Virus genome (UHGV): UHGV-0150809
Strand: one strand, 5' to 3'
Source of the DNA: a virus
DNA length: 40,561 nt
Shown here: positions 3,936 through 37,484 of the stretch, one piece after another
How the letters are laid out: every line of letters begins with the position of its first letter
Position numbering within the stretch: the stretch's first letter is position 1
Position numbers and translations under genes: made by a program
The notes under the pieces: generated by a model
Told to the model about the DNA's origin: nothing
The model's input: only the letters and a program-made list of their open reading frames with translations
Database searches by the model: none

Positions 3936-4520
3936 TTATTGTTTATTTTTTTCGTTCTGGTTGATGACAAATTCAATGTAACTTTCGATCTTTGCTTTCT
4001 CGGTTTCGGGTAACAATGCGTAGCGCGAGCGGTCATAGTTGATGGTCGCAGGGTCGTGCGGGTGAATCAGTAATTCATAGCCGTGACGCCCGAATGCGGA
4101 TGCAACATTCTCCAGGGTGGAAATGGAAACGCTGACTTCATTGTTTAACAGGCGGCTGATTGTCACCTGGGCGACGCCGGATGCGCGGTGAAGTTTTCCT
4201 TGTGTTGAAAGGTCGCGGCTTTCGCTCATCCAGCGTTCCAGGTTGTGAGCCGCCAGCTGACCAATGTCGCTTGGTCCGACAGGCTGAAAACCCTCCTGAG
4301 AAAGCGAGCGATCGATATCAAGCCAGTTACGTGGTTTATTGGCGGCAGCTTCAATTTTTCGCGCAACCTGGTCGCCGATAACCTTCTTGCCAAGAGCCCA
4401 GCGGTTTACCAGATTTGCCTGAGTTCCAAGTTTTTCTGCCATCCGCGTCTGAACACCATTGAATTCACGGTCGATCAAGTCGTTGAGATTTTGCCTGCGG
4501 ACGTCCTGGATACTTTTCAT
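3936..4520 (-). CDS. Phage repressor (CI-like) with two tandem HTH domains and no S24/LexA-like autopeptidase domain
   Basis: 194 aa; N-terminal HTH (GVQTRMAEKLGTQANLVNRWALGKK) and second HTH (ASGVAQVTISRLLNNE); no Ala-Gly/Ser-Lys peptidase motifs; divergent from the cro-like gene with an operator cluster between. Confidence 0.7.
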   Translation of the reverse strand: MKSIQDVRRQNLNDLIDREFNGVQTRMAEKLGTQANLVNRWALGKKVIGDQVARKIEAAANKPRNWLDIDRSLSQEGFQPVGPSDIGQLAAHNLERWMSESRDLSTQGKLHRASGVAQVTISRLLNNEVSVSISTLENVASAFGRHGYELLIHPHDPATINYDRSRYALLPETEKAKIESYIEFVINQNEKNKQ

Positions 4521-4575: not shown

Positions 4576-4638
4576 TTACCCAACAGGTAAATGCACCTCA
4601 TAGGTAACTATCCTTGATTTTTGTTACCTTATGGGTGA
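4576..4638. promoter_or_regulatory. Tripartite operator cluster between repressor and cro (OR-like): 4576-4590 TTACCCAACAGGTAA, 4593-4607 GCACCTCATAGGTAA, 4624-4638 TTACCTTATGGGTGA
   Basis: Three adjacent copies of the palindrome seen directly in the divergent intergenic region; a TTGATT -35-like hexamer at 4614-4619 places the rightward promoter over the third site. Confidence 0.5.
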
Positions 4639-4674: not shown

Positions 4675-4905
4675 ATGAGCGATAACGGACATTTCGATTT
4701 CAAAAAGCACTGGCTTGCACTTACTCCGGATGAGCGTGAAGCCTTCGCACAGGAAGCCGGAACGACGAGTCACTATATCCAGACTCACTTAACAGGTAAG
4801 CGCAAAATGCCAGGTAAAGTATTGATGAATGGGCTTTTTAAAGCCTGTAAAACAAGACAATGGCTGCGCTCAAAAGCAGAACTGGCATACTTCTTCTACT
4901 CATGA
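4675..4905 (+). CDS. Cro-like / YdaS-like HTH regulator
   Basis: 76 aa, divergent from the repressor; HTH-like segment LTPDEREAFAQEAGTTSHYIQTHLTGKR. Confidence 0.6.
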   Translation: MSDNGHFDFKKHWLALTPDEREAFAQEAGTTSHYIQTHLTGKRKMPGKVLMNGLFKACKTRQWLRSKAELAYFFYS

Positions 4906-13920: not shown

Positions 13921-13997
13921 TGGCGTGGCATGCAGGATTCGAACCTGCGACCAACCGCTTAGAAGGCGGTTGCTCTGTCCAACTGAGCTAATGCCAC
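13921..13997 (-). tRNA. tRNA-Arg (anticodon UCU), argU-like
   Basis: Reverse complement folds as a 77-nt cloverleaf: acceptor GTGGCAT/ATGCCAC, D-arm GCTC-AGTTGGACA-GAGC, anticodon loop CTTCTAA, T-arm GCAGG-TTCGAAT-CCTGC, discriminator G and encoded CCA. Confidence 0.8.
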
Positions 13998-30665: not shown

Positions 30666-31211
30666 TTATTCCTTCCATTTATCAGAAAAAAGATCTTCTT
30701 CTAAAGGCATTGGTTCTGTTTTTGTTTTCTCAAAGAATTGATAACTGATAGTGATTGCTGCCTCTTTAAACTCTTCTTGCTCAGTTATGTTGTGGGCATC
30801 TGCGTCAACAAAAAACATAACCAGCGCATCACGATTGTGATTTACCGAATAAACTAAAAAGCAATCACTTGTTGGTATGCATTTTACTTGCACAGACGCT
30901 ATATTTTTCCATGCATCCCAAGATGATTTTTTACCAGTGTGTTTTTTATCACTATCTTCTGGAATATAGTCTTGGTTATCGACATGAGTATGCCTGACAT
31001 TTAGTTTAAGCATTTCTGTCGGACGAGCAAATGCAGCATCTTTACCAAGAGATGGATGGTATCCCGTTTTCCAATACTGGGTAAAGGCATCAGATACTTT
31101 CTTCAGCTCAAGATCAGATGCACAAAGGGCCGAGAAATTTTGCGTATGCAATACTCGACCCTTATATCTGACAATTTGATTTTTATCATTCTGCGACGCA
31201 GACGAACTCAT
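30666..31211 (-). CDS. Hypothetical moron protein (181 aa), possible YafO-family toxin-like C-terminal region
   Basis: ORF track 30666..31238; preferred start MSSSASQ at 31211 after AAGGAAA; AT-rich; the pattern LKLNVRHTHV...TSDCFLVY...ADAHN parallels a recalled YafO pattern (RVAHIHL...LVY...PHK); tentative. Confidence 0.45.
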   Translation of the reverse strand: MSSSASQNDKNQIVRYKGRVLHTQNFSALCASDLELKKVSDAFTQYWKTGYHPSLGKDAAFARPTEMLKLNVRHTHVDNQDYIPEDSDKKHTGKKSSWDAWKNIASVQVKCIPTSDCFLVYSVNHNRDALVMFFVDADAHNITEQEEFKEAAITISYQFFEKTKTEPMPLEEDLFSDKWKE

Positions 31212-31365
31212 AATTTTCCTTATTGTTACGAGAATCAAAGAAAGCGCGGGATACGCGACTTGCGTGATCTTTTGTCATAGTAACTTTTACGCACTCTACG
31301 CTTCCATTGAAAGAACGTCTTGCGGCAGCTTGCGCTCTACGCATCTGCAATTTTTCGTTTCGCAT
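31186..31365 (-). CDS. Small basic 59-aa ORF upstream of and overlapping the 181-aa moron gene (not in ORF track)
   Basis: Hand-translated MRNEKLQMRRAQAAARRSFNGSVECVKVTMTKDHASRVSRAFFDSRNNKENYEFVCVAE; GAGGTAA RBS 6 nt upstream of the ATG; overlaps the downstream start by 26 nt. Confidence 0.3.
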   Translation of the reverse strand: MRNEKLQMRRAQAAARRSFNGSVECVKVTMTKDHASRVSRAFFDSRNNKENYEFVCVAE

Positions 31366-31425: not shown

Positions 31426-31467
31426 TTACCCTTGAGGTAATAGTACGCTATTCACCAACAGTCTGCA
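31426..31467 (-). promoter_or_regulatory. Candidate sigma70 promoter (-35 TTGCAG, 17-bp spacer, -10 TACTAT on the minus strand) with operator TTACCCTTGAGGTAA (31426-31440) just downstream of the -10
   Basis: Hexamers and spacing read on the reverse complement; operator is a perfect copy of the recurring palindrome. Confidence 0.4.
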
Positions 31468-31513
31468 ATCTGTACAGAATTATTTAAAGGCACATCCATG
31501 TGCCGCCGTTCTG

Positions 31514-32200
31514 TCAGAAGAATCCTGCTTTGTCGTTGATGTACTCCGCGTGCGTCTGGATATCACGCAGGCATTTGCTCACACCGACGATGTAGCAGAA
31601 CATGGTGGTCAGCTCTGCCGCCGCGCCCGATACGTCGTGCCCGTCTTCCTGTAACTGGTTCAGCAGATTCATCAGCAGTGAGTTCTCCGTCAGGCCGAGA
31701 ACACCAGACGGCGAGTGAATCAGGCTGCGGTAGCCGGGCTTCAGCGGGGCACTGTAGGTTTTGTTCTCTATCTTCATCGCCTGCATTACTGCTGACGCCG
31801 TGGCGTTGGCTACCTGGTCGGCAACCATCTTTATGCGTTCTTCCTGCGGGAGCGAGTTTTTAATGTAACTTCCGGTGCGGCGGATCTGAGGAAGAACCTC
31901 ACCTGTAACCCATTTACGAAAGCGGTAGGGGATAGTGCCTGGTGTCACCGCATCGCGGCAGCGGAGGATCAGTGTGTAGAGGCCTGACTCGTTGATAATA
32001 TTGGTTTCGCCTTGACGGCCTAAGTTAAATTTAGCCCTTTCATCATCATCAAGAGATTTTATTGACATAGTGGGGTTTGTCAGTTGAAGAGCTTTAATAA
32101 CGTCTTTGGCAACAAACCAAGGATTTCCATCAATAACAATGGCTCGAATGGTTGCCTCTGATTCAAAATGAAAAACAGATGGGGTTACGTTAGCAGTCAT
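31514..32200 (-). CDS. Antirepressor, Bro-N domain family
   Basis: Preferred start MTANVTPSVFHFESE at 32200 after AAAGGTGA; N-terminal ATIRAIVIDGNPWFVAKDVIKAL matches the Bro-N/KilA-N antirepressor signature; ORF track extension to 32353 lacks an RBS and is likely leader. Confidence 0.7.
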   Translation of the reverse strand: MTANVTPSVFHFESEATIRAIVIDGNPWFVAKDVIKALQLTNPTMSIKSLDDDERAKFNLGRQGETNIINESGLYTLILRCRDAVTPGTIPYRFRKWVTGEVLPQIRRTGSYIKNSLPQEERIKMVADQVANATASAVMQAMKIENKTYSAPLKPGYRSLIHSPSGVLGLTENSLLMNLLNQLQEDGHDVSGAAAELTTMFCYIVGVSKCLRDIQTHAEYINDKAGFF

Positions 32201-32466
32201 AGTGATCACCTTTGTAGTTAGGTTAATCACCACTACCGACGCCAATCGGTTGGTGGTGAACTGTGCAGGGTTGGCGTAACCGGCTACAAAGGACCCGGCG
32301 CACCTTTCGGTGCCCCCACACAGCCCACCATAGAATAGGTGCGCTTTACACATAAAAAAACCGCTTATGCGGCATATGTGCCTCTGTAGTAACCCGGGAC
32401 GCCAATCCCGGCACTGGCAAAATCCAGTGCCCGATTACTATGGCACAAGAGGAGTGCGATGTAAAT

Positions 32467-32574
32467 TTACCGCAAAGGTAATGATAAACGCGAAGAAATA
32501 TTAAAATCAACCGTATTTGGTTGATTGCGTTTAACGCTTGATCACCTGAAAGCAAGATATTACCTTTAAGGTAA
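32467..32574. promoter_or_regulatory. Two operator-like palindromes (32467-32481 TTACCGCAAAGGTAA; 32560-32574 TTACCTTTAAGGTAA) in the divergent region between the antirepressor and the zinc-ribbon gene
   Basis: Perfect motif copies; a weaker copy TCACCTGAAAGCAAG lies between them. Confidence 0.45.
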
Positions 32575-32594
32575 TGTTATTGTGAGGAAAAGCA

Positions 32595-33323
32595 ATGGAA
32601 GTTTTCTGGATAGTTGTTGGTGTGGTTGCGGTGATTATTTACGTTATCAACCAGAACAAGACTAAGATCTCTGATCGTACGGTCGTTAATCATAACAAAA
32701 CGATAAAGACCGAAGATGGGGAGATAACGATTAATCGTACACAGGTGATAGAACACACCTCTACTCAGTTTCAAAAAACTGGAGGTAATGCGCCTAATAT
32801 TTCCGCACCTCCTGCTTATGATAGTGCGGTAATCCAGACATATTATAAACAGCAGGAGTTAGCAAAAGAGAGGCAACTGATTCAGCCAAAGCCGTTTACA
32901 GCTGAGCTTCCACCTGGAGTGTCAACGCGTCCGGCATATCATGGAAGATTCCCTGGTGATGACATATCGTCTCAGTCATCTAAAAAAGCACCTCAGGCAG
33001 TATCAGAGCCAGCAAGAATACCTTCTGCATCGCCGCCAAAAGAAGAATCAGCTAACAGAGTTTCAAGTGGTAGCAAGCAGTGCTTGCGATGCAGAATAAA
33101 CCTTCCATATGAAAAATTCAGGAAATCGTCAAAAAATCCAGATGGATTGACTAAGTGGTGTGCAAGGTGTCTCGATGGCCCAAAGAATACACGCCATATG
33201 AAGTGGTGCCCAATTTGTAATGTCCGCAGAAAACGAACCAGCTTTTACCCTAATAATCAAAATGCGGACGGCTTAATGGCATGGTGCAAAACGTGCTGGG
33301 ATGAGCACAAAGCGAAACGATAG
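32595..33323 (+). CDS. Membrane-anchored protein with tandem C-terminal zinc ribbons
   Basis: 242 aa; N-terminal TM helix (VFWIVVGVVAVIIYVI), Pro/Ser-rich linker, then two repeats of C-x2-C ... DGL-x2-WC-x2-C (CLRCRINLPYEKFRKSSKNPDGLTKWCARC; CPICNVRRKRTSFYPNNQNADGLMAWCKTC). Confidence 0.5.
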   Translation: MEVFWIVVGVVAVIIYVINQNKTKISDRTVVNHNKTIKTEDGEITINRTQVIEHTSTQFQKTGGNAPNISAPPAYDSAVIQTYYKQQELAKERQLIQPKPFTAELPPGVSTRPAYHGRFPGDDISSQSSKKAPQAVSEPARIPSASPPKEESANRVSSGSKQCLRCRINLPYEKFRKSSKNPDGLTKWCARCLDGPKNTRHMKWCPICNVRRKRTSFYPNNQNADGLMAWCKTCWDEHKAKR

Positions 33324-33345: not shown

Positions 33346-33603
33346 TTACCGGGTTTGTTTTCGTAATTGTTCGGCACAATAGTCGAGATGTGTTTGCAGA
33401 TCCTGCATAGACATCTGTGAGCTGGTGACGTAGTTAATCAGTGCAGTCAGTTCGGCAAGTGGGCCATCGACATTAAATCCATCCTTATCGAGATCCCGGA
33501 GTAATTTCATCAAGTGCGATCCCTCCACCAGTGACCTGACGCCTCCCGGCGTGTGAATCCTTTCGGTAAATCCGTCTTCCAGTGGATAGTGATACTGCTG
33601 CAT
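33346..33603 (-). CDS. Short antirepressor-like protein, paralog of the C-terminal domain of the Bro-N antirepressor; candidate SOS-induced antirepressor
   Basis: Preferred start MQQYHY at 33603 after GGAGAAG; RIHTPGGVRSLVEGSHLMKLLRDLDKDGFNVDGPLAELTALINYV aligns by eye with SLIHSPSGVLGLTENSLLMNLLNQLQEDGHDVSGAAAELTTMFCYI of the 31514-32200 product; LexA box 22 bp upstream. Confidence 0.55.
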   Translation of the reverse strand: MQQYHYPLEDGFTERIHTPGGVRSLVEGSHLMKLLRDLDKDGFNVDGPLAELTALINYVTSSQMSMQDLQTHLDYCAEQLRKQTR

Positions 33604-33624: not shown

Positions 33625-33640
33625 CTGTATAAATATACAG
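33625..33640. promoter_or_regulatory. LexA (SOS) box CTGTATAAATATACAG
   Basis: Perfect CTGT-N8-ACAG with AT-rich spacer, overlapping a TATATT -10-like hexamer for the leftward gene starting at 33603. Confidence 0.6.
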
Positions 33641-33679
33641 TATCAAATAATTTGTTTGCTATCCAGCACGTTTTGCAAA

Positions 33680-33694
33680 TCACCTGAAAGGTAA
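33680..33694. promoter_or_regulatory. Operator-like palindrome TCACCTGAAAGGTAA
   Basis: One-mismatch copy of the motif about 40 bp from the LexA box, between the small antirepressor and the tail-fibre gene. Confidence 0.4.
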
Positions 33695-37189: not shown

Positions 37190-37484
37190 GTTTTTTTTGC
37201 TTATCACCAATGCAGTTATTTGTACTGGCATAGCAATTCGCGTTGTCACATTCCGGCGTAACGGCTCTCAACATCGAAGATGGGGAGGGTGGCTTGCTTA
37301 TTTCCTTATTGTTGCTGCGGCCAGTATTCCTGTTCGTGTCGTCTATGCAATCTGGTTACGCACGCCAATGGCTGTGGATTTATCTGAGGTCATTATCAAC
37401 GCTGTCATGCTTGCCGCGGTTATTAAAACACGCGGTAACGTTGTTCAGATTTTCAAAATATCGAGGTCTAAACATGGAGATTAA
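37176..37484 (+). CDS. Second small membrane protein of the lysis cassette (holin/antiholin candidate)
   Basis: 102 aa, 2-3 hydrophobic helices, overlaps the endolysin start. Confidence 0.4.

Follow-up and report, generated by a model that had tools for sequence, protein, structure and literature searches.

A probable RNA switch of the P1/P7 immI type in the antirepressor leader of an epsilon15/phiV10-like temperate podophage

The antirepressor gene and its promoter

The viral genome UHGV-0150809, a stretch of 40,561 nucleotides that we refer to as the window, carries an antirepressor gene (ant) on the minus strand at 31514–32200. Its 228-residue product consists of an N-terminal Bro-N domain and a C-terminal domain of about 80 residues that resembles phrog_450. 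Ant was matched by Pfam PF02498 (Bro-N, E 5e-20) and by phrog_130, annotated as 'anti-repressor Ant' (E 8e-57), whereas NCBIfam names none of Ant, a small ORF and a 242-aa protein. An earlier note, made by a model from the letters of the DNA, had set the ant start codon at 32200. We arrived at the same codon, i.e., the ATG that opens the Bro-N reading frame and is preceded by a Shine-Dalgarno (SD) sequence. In the related phage ZX5, overexpression of the corresponding gene pushes the phage towards lysis (PMC9782041).

The operon promoter was located on the minus strand at 32437–32465. It comprises a −35 hexamer TTTACA (32465–32460), a 17-nt spacer and an extended −10 element TGcCATAGT (32445–32437), scoring 9 of 12 matches with the TG present, and transcription is predicted to start at G32430. 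The Rfam isrK model described below starts at this same nucleotide, 7 nt past the −10 element. The −10 element and most of the −35 hexamer are invariant in all five epsilon15-like relatives; the −35 region of phiV10 has TATA. On the plus strand, the promoter scan found no promoter-like site inside the leader.

Two operators claimed previously in this region were both recovered as TTACC-N5-GGTAA palindromes, which occur ten times in the window compared with 0.03 copies expected. The proximal operator (TTACCGCAAAGGTAA, 32467–32481) abuts the −35 hexamer of the isrK promoter, and in the five epsilon15-like relatives its half-sites are invariant throughout while the spacer is variable. The distal operator (TTACCTTTAAGGTAA, 32560–32574) lies 21 bp 5′ of the ATG (32595) of a divergent plus-strand gene, within a segment common only to the window and TL-2011b. 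The operator-bearing promoter thus does lie upstream of ant, as had been noted, but the leader is shorter than the 270–360 bp given there and measures 230 nt from the predicted start (about 32430) to the ATG.

Hairpins are found on both sides of the operon on the minus strand. Upstream of the promoter, a terminator-like hairpin at 32505–32526 (AAUCAACC-AAAUAC-GGUUGAUU), the core of which is kept in the five-phage alignment, may insulate the promoter against read-through from upstream. Ten nucleotides after the ant stop codon, a second hairpin (31478–31504, GGCACAU-GG-AUGUGCC followed by UUUAAAUAAUU) failed the T-run criterion of the terminator scan; we tentatively regard it as the probable end of the operon.

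No LexA box was found in or beside the isrK promoter, the only good SOS box being 1.2 kb upstream at 33625–33640. The candidate prophage repressor, encoded at 3936–4520, is a double-HTH protein of 194 residues. An autocleavage domain was not detected in it, which fits induction via the antirepressor.

The leader encodes two structured RNAs

Directly downstream of the predicted start lies a 77-nt IsrK-like small RNA (32354–32430, minus strand). Rfam RF01394 covers it in full length (model positions 1–77). The score of 56.7 bits (E 1.1e-9) exceeds the gathering score of 50 and is below the 59–80 bits of the relatives. The minimum free energy (MFE) structure agrees with the expected architecture (z −2.1), i.e., two 5′ hairpins, a linker, a Rho-independent terminator and a U-run, and 7 of the 15 base pairs show compensatory changes among 17 homologues. 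In the nomenclature of P1, the loop of hairpin 2 displays the a1 site (GAUUGGCGUC, 32398–32407) and the single-stranded linker carries the b1 site (CUACAGAGG, 32381–32389), which ends 8 nt 5′ of the terminator stem.

The hairpin with a U-run that had been noticed earlier on the minus strand at 32380–32349 (CACAUAUGCCGCAUAAGCGGUUUUUUUAUGUG) is the intrinsic terminator of this RNA (32354–32373). Its stem GCCGC/GCGGU spans 32373–32360 with the loop AUAA, and seven U residues occupy 32360–32354. The terminator hairpin forms unaided in the IsrK MFE structure. All 17 aligned homologues have a hairpin with a U-run here, with five U residues in Stx2c_JNE090279 and six to seven in the others, and two pairs of its stem have undergone compensatory changes. 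A generic terminator scan of the region yielded four hits compared with 1.4 expected, which is not significant alone; the hairpin acquires its significance because it is the terminator of the Rfam isrK match (56.7 bits, E 1e-9). The proposal of a short leader RNA is upheld for a predicted short terminated RNA ending near 32354, but the single attenuator gives way to two curated RNA genes.

The second of these genes is a C4-type antisense RNA at 32249–32335 on the same strand. Rfam RF01695 matched it over the full-length model (1–87), and the score of 79.5 bits (E 3.9e-14) exceeds the gathering score of 45. Its MFE structure is identical to the Rfam consensus structure (−45.2 kcal/mol, z −3.6): a long closing stem encloses two hairpins, and a single-stranded segment follows hairpin 2. 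Compensatory changes were seen in 14 of the 27 pairs among 19 homologues including P1. The loop of hairpin 2 presents the b′ sequence (CCUUUGUAG, 32284–32292), unpaired in both the MFE and the consensus structure, and the a′ sequence (ACGCCAA, 32271–32277) is part of the unpaired stretch that links hairpin 2 to the closing stem. From the annotated ends of P1 c4, the mature RNA is predicted to span 32329–32252, i.e., 78 nt. The C4 RNA of P1/P7 is a stable RNA of about 77 nt that represses in trans; reviews state that RNase P takes part in its processing from the precursor, acting at the 5′ end.

Both RNAs lie in tandem on the ant strand of the window, above their gathering scores, and all 18 relatives fetched show this tandem as well. 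The context is that of the C4 family, i.e., the RNA is located upstream of ant and co-oriented with it, behind a promoter abutted by an operator. In the segment 31200–32700, Rfam gave no family at E ≤ 0.1 beyond C4, isrK and the c4-a1b1 motif. The last of these (RF03163, 32443–32391) reached 26.9 bits (E 2.7e-4) and missed its gathering score of 46.7, which is attained by five of the 18 relatives (Gifsy-1, VT2-Sakai, phi296, JLK-2012 and Apl-pPE4) and also by P1 with 51.0 bits. The a1 and b1 sequences themselves are present and co-varying in the window despite this sub-threshold score.

The leader of ant thus holds a phage control module that is already known but has gone unannotated here. The two RNA genes are unmarked in every phage or RefSeq record of the phage group that we inspected. 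ORF callers yield spurious extended or 'hypothetical' ORFs over the leader.

The reading frame of ant is uninterrupted from an ATG at 32353 down to 31514, and the leader might accordingly be read as coding for a real, N-terminally extended antirepressor of 279 residues. We give this hardly any credence. The ATG at 32353 falls in the U-run of the terminator and no SD sequence precedes it. By our own reading of the sequences, the frame hits a stop in TL-2011b and phiV10. RefSeq and three phage records, among them TL-2011b and Tyrion, start ant at the equivalent of 32200, and the stretch in question is explained by structured RNA with compensatory changes.

C4 is complementary to two target pairs, one of which covers the ant SD

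A repeated 10-mer had also been pointed out in the leader. The window contains just two copies of it (GATTGGCGTC when read on the minus strand; 32407–32398 and 32247–32238) where 0.09 copies are expected by chance, and in none of 100 shuffles were two copies reached. The upstream copy is the a1 site. The downstream copy, a2 (GAUUGGCGUC, 32238–32247), begins 2 nt past C4 and is displayed by the loop of a short hairpin with the stem CCGA/UCGG. The seven nucleotides of a′ are complementary (7 bp) to the core UUGGCGU of both a1 and a2. The repeat had been taken as an attenuator element; its functional importance holds, but its copies are the a1 and a2 targets of C4, with which they co-vary in the window and 18 relatives. 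A second ATTGGCGT, found at 37369, is a lone 8-mer that lacks a neighbouring b-like site, and we put it down to chance.

A second complementarity had been overlooked in the earlier note and is the mechanistically decisive one. The C4 loop b′ (CCUUUGUAG) matches exactly the reverse complement of b2 (CUACAAAGG, 32209–32217), which overlaps the ant SD sequence (AAAGGUGA) and ends 8 nt before the ATG. No ORF intervenes between C4 and ant, and b2 hence sits on the SD of ant itself. Moreover, b′ pairs with b1 across nine contiguous positions including one G-U pair. The middle part of the IsrK-like RNA (a1/b1) is thus complementary to a downstream segment (a′/b′) of its own read-through transcript, as expected of an IsrK RNA.

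We compared these sites across the window and its 18 relatives. For the variable 5-mer of the a sites, a1 equals the reverse complement of a′ and equals a2 in 19 of 19 loci, which represent seven alleles. The same identity was found in 33 of 33 further IMG/VR relatives with four combinations of a and b alleles, a set that was collected by a small-protein search, contains only relatives of 99–100% identity and is therefore a population sample rather than evidence of deep conservation. The b sites fall into 15 alleles. Here, the mean complementary run of b′ with b1 was 8.4 nt for cognate and 4.9 nt for non-cognate combinations, and with b2 it was 8.9 nt and 5.9 nt, respectively. The cognate b2 ends 0–12 nt from the start codon in 17 of the 19 loci; the exceptions are VT2-Sakai (16 nt) and PhiR26_1, where b2 lies just inside the ORF. 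The window itself combines an a allele of the phiV10 type with a b allele of the Tyrion type.

In the MFE structure of the full leader, a1 and b1 pair in cis with a′ and b′, which corresponds to 'structure A' of Gifsy-1. When whole modules were compared with RNAduplex, the cognate C4 ranked first for 16 of the 19 IsrK targets. On the ant leader, this analysis was noisy owing to shared stems, and we hence relied on the exact comparison of the a and b sites. When C4 was cofolded with either IsrK or the ant leader (RNAcofold), the duplexes were not favored over the separately folded monomers; loop-loop kissing cannot be represented in this calculation.

These complementarities bear on a simpler reading, in which the hairpin with U7 is a plain intrinsic attenuator that cuts transcription into ant and the 10-mer has no role in RNA-RNA pairing. 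The hairpin and the U-run exist, and partial termination is common to every model considered here. An attenuator would, however, leave unexplained the Rfam C4 match, the complementarity of C4 to both repeats and to the SD, and the three-way co-variation over 7 and 15 alleles, so that we consider it highly improbable.

A proposed RNA switch for antirepressor synthesis

We propose, with a probability of roughly 0.8, that the region is an RNA switch of the P1/P7 immI type that gates the antirepressor of an epsilon15/phiV10-like temperate podophage. A single promoter, its −35 hexamer abutted by the operator of the prophage repressor, would drive the operon. Most transcripts would end at the hairpin with U7, giving the 77-nt IsrK-like RNA. 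Transcripts that read through would contain the C4-type RNA, probably excised to about 78 nt as in P1, and then the ant mRNA. In C4, a′ would pair with a2 and b′ with b2 on the ant SD, which would keep ribosomes off ant and leave Ant unable to inactivate the prophage repressor. The IsrK-like RNA, carrying a1 and b1, would mimic the ribosome-binding region of ant; in cis it could pair with a′ and b′ of the read-through transcript, and in trans it could sequester C4 and thereby lift repression. For C4 processing, for translational repression and for the role of IsrK as decoy or activator, we infer from experiments on P1 and Gifsy-1. On this analogy, it is most likely through the two RNAs that antirepressor translation is switched off or on.

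The order of elements in the P1 record is the same as in the window, i.e., operator, promoters, a1, b1, c4, a2, b2 (there over the RBS of icd) and ant. In the immI regions of P1 and P7 (c4, icd, ant1/ant2) as in the window, a′ and b′ lie in a C4 RNA of the same fold, a2 follows right after C4 and the antirepressor gene lies downstream. Moreover, P1 also has many dispersed repressor operators (C1 operators, compared with the ten palindromes of the window), and a hairpin with a U-run precedes its c4. This upstream module of P1 gives only a sub-threshold isrK match of 35 bits, in contrast to the strong match with a U7 terminator in the window. Further differences are that P1 and P7 have the icd-type leader ORF, whereas in the window there is none and b2 is placed on the SD of ant; that Ant and P1 Ant1 are unrelated (E 0.11); that the operator of the window is a symmetric TTACC-N5-GGTAA and the C1 site of P1 is asymmetric; and that the phage of the window is an integrating podophage of 40 kb, P1 a myovirus with a plasmid prophage. 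The icd-type leader ORF is specific to P1/P7 and stands outside the Rfam definition of C4.

In APSE phages of Hamiltonella defensa, a close parallel has been annotated (Rouil et al. 2020, PMC7313666; LR794149): small RNAs of the isrK and C4 families, the latter with a′ and b′ regions, and downstream of them a Bro-N protein. The depositors report complementarity to the region upstream of the Bro-N gene (PMC7313666). APSE and the window share a short ORF of 8–15 codons and a target on the SD of the Bro-N gene. The APSE alleles differ from those of the window, with CGCAU or GACCU at the a site and CUAAACAGG or UAACAAGG at the b site. In the APSE record, the labels a′ and b′ are reversed relative to P1, and the lineage is a different one (Sendosyvirus).

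The earlier note likened the control of ant to that in P22. There, ant is controlled mainly by the proteins Arc and Mnt and additionally by the opposite-strand sar RNA over the ant start. P22 and, on the proposed model, the window have in common that the antirepressor is kept tightly off and that a small RNA masks the ribosome-binding site of ant. In the window, the antisense RNA is encoded on the same strand, in cis and upstream of its target, in contrast to sar on the opposite strand, and Rfam gave no sar-like match at E ≤ 0.1. P1/P7 immI and the Gifsy-1 isrK locus are the closer analogues.

At the Gifsy-1 locus, the isrK and C4 tandem likewise exceeds the Rfam thresholds, and the a-site allele GGCGU is identical. 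Pairing of IsrK with orf45 was proven there by the mutations G28-C162 and G31-C159 (Hershko-Shalev et al. 2016, PMC4825925), and these proven pairs map exactly onto base pairs of a1 with a′. As predicted for the window, Gifsy-1 gives a short terminated small RNA, a read-through mRNA and a stable RNA of about 80 nt (STnc1160) that is processed out of the read-through transcript (PMC4825925). When supplied in trans, IsrK of Gifsy-1 raised translation of the antirepressor 139-fold (PMC4825925); Hfq binding and trans-activation of antirepressor translation are known only for this IsrK. Two results from Gifsy-1 speak against the proposed switch, as do the sub-threshold c4-a1b1 score and the cofolding result in the window. 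A constitutively expressed C4-like segment did not counteract IsrK toxicity (PMC4825925), and a1 mutations in cis raised rather than lowered translation (PMC4825925), which counts against the switch because a pure trans-decoy does not predict a rise. The C4-like construct of Gifsy-1 began at the second AUG, so that part of the C4 closing stem was missing. The two loci differ in their surroundings as well: Gifsy-1 AnrP and the Ant protein of the window are unrelated (E 4.3), no isrJ follows ant in the window, and the Gifsy-1 locus is found after a Q antiterminator gene, that of the window beside a tail-fibre gene.

For Gifsy-1, a model of activation by IsrK has been published with experimental support (PMC4825925). 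Applied to the window, the mRNA would be silent until the IsrK-like RNA opened the RBS of a small ORF ('orf45'), starting at the conserved UAUGG at the 5′ end of the C4 element, and translation of this ORF would couple to ant. The AUG is indeed kept in 20 of 20 loci, but the conserved AUGG belongs to the closing stem of C4. In Gifsy-1, the model needs translation of orf45, whose 45 codons end in a stop overlapping the anrP AUG. The corresponding frame of the window has 15 codons and ends at a UAG in the b′ loop, 84 nt 5′ of the ant AUG, and coupling is therefore impossible there. Across relatives, the length of the ORF ranges between 8 and 45 codons, or the ORF forms a fusion with the gene that follows, and ant has an SD of its own that is covered by b2. 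Hence, we regard orf45-dependent activation of ant as improbable in the window.

The P4 CI RNA (seqA/seqC), which confers immunity by premature termination, is a processed small RNA flanked on its transcript by two copies of the target with which it pairs, and in this it resembles the C4 RNA predicted for the window. In P4, it controls replication genes by transcription termination (PMC4825925), and no antirepressor is known to take part. In analogy, C4 might act mainly on transcription instead of on ribosome binding: at a1/b1 it would raise termination at the IsrK terminator, and at a2/b2 it would cause premature Rho-dependent termination in ant. The position of b1, which is separated from the downstream terminator stem by just 8 nt, is in line with such a role. 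For P1, Biere et al. in 1992 reportedly described that translational repression of icd is converted into transcriptional polarity on ant, which we counted in favor of this mechanism. The Gifsy-1 authors raise the model too; they regard IsrK as structurally homologous to P4 seqA and measured an 8-fold rise of a transcriptional fusion when IsrK was supplied in trans (PMC4825925). This effect is much smaller than the 139-fold translational one (PMC4825925). Furthermore, the terminator hairpin forms in the IsrK MFE structure without help. In nearly all loci, b2 coincides exactly with the SD, and this suggests that the contact under selection is the one that occludes the ribosome. We therefore consider it rather unlikely that C4 acts mainly on transcription. 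Transcriptional control of the P4 kind is compatible with the proposed translational switch and could run alongside it.

Implications

The module of the window differs from P1 and Gifsy-1 in that it has no leader ORF (icd or orf45) and an Ant of the Bro-N type. It is hence a version in which a pure RNA-RNA mechanism could be tested. The comparison also joins two literatures, on P1 c4 and on Gifsy-1 IsrK, that apparently have been treated separately. Of 5,426 complete E. coli genomes, 933 contained matches to the leader. From the a and b alleles, it can be predicted which co-resident prophages are able to cross-repress each other's antirepressors. As the repressor has no detectable self-cleavage domain, the antirepressor likely matters for induction, and recognition of the module would explain why a potent antirepressor stays silent in these prophages.

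More tentatively, IsrK-like and C4-like RNAs may form a general two-RNA toggle, made up of an antisense repressor and a target-mimic decoy from the same operon. The a and b patches would be exchanged independently of each other and would sort epsilon15-like and many other prophages into 'RNA immunity groups'. The orf45 peptide of the Gifsy-1 model would be incidental, since it is the C4 RNA that is conserved. A link to the SOS response would be provided by the LexA-box promoter of the small gene for an Ant C-terminal domain immediately upstream; if so, LexA cleavage would drive transcription into isrK-C4-ant and tip the ratio of IsrK to C4.

Two RNA genes in the antirepressor leader

An Rfam scan of the whole window at curated thresholds returned three matches. 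Two of them stand in tandem inside the leader of ant, the Bro-N antirepressor gene of the window (31514-32200, minus strand), and on the ant strand, i.e., isrK (RF01394, 32430-32354, minus strand, 56.7 bits) and the C4 antisense RNA (RF01695, 32335-32249, minus strand, 79.5 bits). The third, a tRNA-Arg with anticodon TCT (13921-13997, minus strand; Rfam 73.3 bits, also called by ARAGORN), lies far from the ant locus. Both leader RNAs have family-like folds (z -3.6 for C4 and z -2.1 for IsrK), and homologue alignments contained compensatory changes at 14 of 27 C4 pairs and 7 of 15 IsrK pairs. The Rfam c4-a1b1 model remained sub-threshold in the window (26.9 bits), although a1 and b1, the upstream target copies, are both present.

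An earlier note had read a leader hairpin and a repeated 10-mer as attenuation or a small RNA, and all features it listed lie where it placed them. The hairpin (minus strand 32380-32349, CACAUAUGCCGCAUAAGCGGUUUUUUUAUGUG) serves as terminator to the IsrK-like RNA; its stem is 5 bp long and G+C-rich (32373-32360), the loop reads AUAA, and seven U residues occupy 32360-32354. The 10-mer GATTGGCGTC occurs on the minus strand at 32407-32398 and 32247-32238 only, with 0.09 copies expected by chance; it is a real two-copy repeat, and its role is that of the a1/a2 pair of target sites. The Bro-N ORF starts with the ATG at 32200 with a Shine-Dalgarno sequence (SD) in front, and two TTACC-N5-GGTAA operator palindromes are present (32467-32481 and 32560-32574).

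The window is a temperate podophage of the epsilon15/phiV10-like group (Uetakevirus), with TL-2011b as nearest relative (96% identity). In the records of this group that we inspected, no RNA was annotated at the ant leader; the phiV10 record has a 'putative rho-independent terminator' alone, and a RefSeq prophage copy 100% identical to the window lists only proteins.

Target sites and their co-variation

All target sites lie on the minus strand. Upstream copy a1 (GAUUGGCGUC, 32407-32398) occupies the loop of IsrK hairpin 2, and b1 (CUACAGAGG, 32389-32381) lies in the IsrK-like RNA between a1 and the terminator. C4 carries the complementary patches b' (CCUUUGUAG, 32292-32284), in a loop, and a' (ACGCCAA, 32277-32271). 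After C4 follow the downstream copies a2 (GAUUGGCGUC, 32247-32238) and b2 (CUACAAAGG, 32217-32209), the latter overlapping the ant SD and ending 8 nt before the ATG. The order a1, b1, terminator, C4 (b', a'), a2, b2, ant is that of P1 immI. Judged by sequence, the predicted b':b2 pairing over the ribosome-binding site, which the earlier note had missed, is the one that matters most. In RNAduplex calculations on the window sequences, C4 preferred IsrK (-31.5 kcal/mol) to the ant leader (-25.0 kcal/mol) as pairing partner.

We fetched 18 diverse loci for comparison, i.e., TL-2011b, phiV10, Tyrion, Kp4865-1, two APSE phages, Gifsy-1, SW-37, several Stx phages and phages of Yersinia, Salmonella and Actinobacillus. 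The isrK-C4 tandem scored above the Rfam thresholds in 18/18. At the a site, the variable 5-mer comes in seven alleles (GGCGU, CGCAU, GGUCU, GAGAC, GACCU, AGCAC and UGCAC), and a1 equals both a2 and the reverse complement of a' in 19/19 loci, window included. For the b' loop we counted 15 alleles among the compared loci; cognate b':b1 pairing averaged 8.4 contiguous pairs vs 4.9 for non-cognate combinations, and b':b2 pairing 8.9 vs 5.9. In 17/19 loci the distance between the end of cognate b2 and the downstream start codon is 0-12 nt, the exceptions being VT2-Sakai (16 nt) and PhiR26_1, where b2 lies just within the ORF. Further IMG/VR relatives showed the three-way a-site match in 33/33 cases, with four a/b allele combinations among them, so the two patches reassort; the window combines a phiV10-type a allele with a Tyrion/Kp4865-type b allele. 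We take this co-variation as the mark of selection, at both target copies, for RNA-RNA pairing, and it rules out a plain attenuator. The other part of the earlier proposal, a small terminated RNA before the Bro-N antirepressor, is supported.

A GGUGGUGA-type motif after a2 (window 32221-32258) is conserved at the corresponding place in each of the other 19 loci, P1 among them, and is complementary to UCACCACC, the 3' strand of the C4 closing stem. This 3' strand therefore has two potential partners in an unprocessed transcript, the C4 5' strand and the downstream motif, and pairing with the latter would form a long hairpin with a2 in its loop; the alternative pairing is possibly a processing or conformational switch.

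Comparison with known systems

In its own annotated record, P1 immI begins with a C1 operator and tandem promoters, followed by a1 (TTGACAG) in a hairpin loop, b1 (GTTAGTG) and a hairpin with U-run. Then comes the 77-nt c4 RNA, whose hairpin-2 loop holds b' and whose next single-stranded segment holds a', and finally a2 right after c4, b2 on the Shine-Dalgarno of the leader ORF icd, icd itself and ant1/2. P1/P7 c4 is described as an antisense RNA whose binding site lies around the ant-operon ribosome-binding site and as the basis of P1/P7 heteroimmunity (review PMC12197685; P1 record).

In Gifsy-1, IsrK is a short terminated sRNA, and part of the transcripts extend past its terminator into orf45-anrP. 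This long transcript stays translationally silent; supplying IsrK in trans increases anrP translation 139-fold, and the read-through transcript is processed to a stable RNA of ~80 nt, STnc1160 (PMC4825925). We found that STnc1160 coincides with the C4 element. Moreover, G28/C162 and G31/C159 (paper numbering), the pairs mutated by the Gifsy-1 authors as proof of 'helix b-I' (PMC4825925), are exactly a1:a' base pairs, and the MFE structure of the full window leader has the same cis helix joining a1/b1 to a'/b'. C4 RNA explains the conservation of 'orf45' at the nucleotide, not the protein, level. 'Hypothetical proteins' have been called on the C4 element in Gifsy-1, VT2-Sakai (orf34), phi296 (CDS_0073), YpM_41 and others; these annotations are probably spurious.

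For APSE phages, Rouil et al. described both sRNAs, together with complementarity to sequence lying before the Bro-N gene; the APSE-7 GenBank record has the a and b labels swapped relative to P1. In Uetakevirus ZX5, overexpression of the corresponding antirepressor gene shifts the phage towards lysis; the ZX5 paper does not mention the sRNAs.

Unlike P1 and Gifsy-1, the window has neither icd nor orf45. The ORF from the conserved UAUGG of the C4 stem has only 15 codons here and stops at a UAG inside b'; over the 19 loci its length varies between 8 and 45 codons, except where it is fused with the downstream gene. Gifsy-1 translational coupling hence cannot apply, and b2 would act directly on the SD of ant itself.

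Promoter, repressor and proposed mechanism

The promoter, with -35 TTTACA, extended -10 TGcCATAGT and a start near 32430, is conserved, and a repressor operator directly adjoins its -35. Among epsilon15-like phages, 5/5 have an invariant -10 and invariant operator half-sites; phiV10 differs at one -35 position. TTACC-N5-GGTAA occurs 10 times in the window vs 0.03 expected (15 bp each, from 3802, 3864, 4576, 6907, 6969, 11109, 14320, 31426, 32467 and 32560), plus a one-mismatch copy at 33680-33694. These operators are dispersed ahead of several transcription units and flank the candidate prophage repressor gene on both sides (194 aa, 3936-4520, minus strand; HTH_3 at E 1e-9 and an N-terminal YdaS/HTH-like region). 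Operator 4576-4590 separates it from a divergent Cro-like ORF (76 aa, 4675-4905, plus strand). The arrangement is a dispersed multi-operator regulon following the logic of P1 C1, as opposed to one single immunity region. No S24 autocleavage domain was detected in the candidate repressor; together with the ten operators, this makes the antirepressor a plausible induction route.

We propose that most transcripts would end as IsrK-like RNA, with termination probably incomplete, as in Gifsy-1, because the terminator stem is short. Read-through transcripts would yield C4 (predicted 32329-32252 from homology to the P1 c4 ends) and ant mRNA. C4 on a2 and b2 would cover the SD and keep Ant off, while IsrK, carrying both targets, would mimic the ant leader, pair with C4 in cis and trans and so antagonise repression. 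Two Gifsy-1 observations speak against so simple a scheme of C4 repressor and IsrK decoy: a constitutive orf45/STnc1160 segment gave no protection from IsrK (its start at the second AUG left the construct without some of the C4 closing stem), and a1 mutations in cis raised translation. A P4-CI-like effect on termination may act alongside translational repression.

Neighbouring genes

A near-consensus LexA (SOS) box (CTGTATAAATATACAG, 33625-33640) overlaps a promoter-like site (-35-like TTGATA, 33641-33646) 21 nt upstream of an 85-aa gene (33346-33603, minus strand; phrog_450, PhiV10p24/epsilon15p19 homologue). The box has the same position in TL-2011b, phiV10, Tyrion and 74/80 close IMG/VR relatives. 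The encoded protein matches the C-terminal ~80 aa of Ant (40% identity, E 1e-19), and in phiV10-type genomes isrK-C4-ant is co-oriented with this gene and starts 100-199 nt past its stop codon. It may be an SOS-inducible mini-antirepressor, or an Ant modulator, just upstream of RNA-gated ant.

Between this gene and the isrK promoter lies, in opposite orientation, a 242-aa gene of unknown function (32595-33323, plus strand; phrog_6762) with an operator 21 bp upstream of its ATG. Its product has, by sequence reading, a hydrophobic stretch at the N-terminus, and its C-terminal repeats weakly match Zn-ribbon/endonuclease VII-like families. The gene is absent in phiV10, Tyrion and Kp4865-1, is a longer 'misc_feature' in TL-2011b, and looks like a moron-type insertion. 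Directly downstream of ant, operator 31426-31440 is followed by a 59-aa ORF (31186-31365, minus strand; phrog_6685) that precedes and overlaps a YafO-family toxin-like gene (30666-31238, minus strand; Pfam E 1e-5, same annotation in TL-2011b and RefSeq); these may form a repressor-controlled toxin-antitoxin pair.

A portable two-RNA module

We conclude from sequence comparison that the window locus is a two-RNA control module of the P1 immI / Gifsy-1 isrK type before a Bro-N antirepressor. The module is of an already-known kind, found by standard Rfam models, and this copy was unannotated; its minor variant features are the lack of a leader ORF, the mosaic a/b specificity and the palindromic multi-copy operator. 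Window Ant, a Bro-N domain joined to a C-terminal domain of ~80 aa, is related neither to AnrP of Gifsy-1 nor to Ant1 of P1, and PhiR26_1 has a Rha protein in place of Ant; the RNA cassette is thus a portable regulator ahead of various antirepressor-type genes. By megablast, 933 of 5,426 complete E. coli genomes matched the 296-nt promoter-isrK-C4 leader; in 446 of these the match spanned 80% of the query or more, and a genome carried up to three copies. With several leader copies in one genome, co-resident prophages could cross-talk via RNA, whether their a/b alleles agree or differ.
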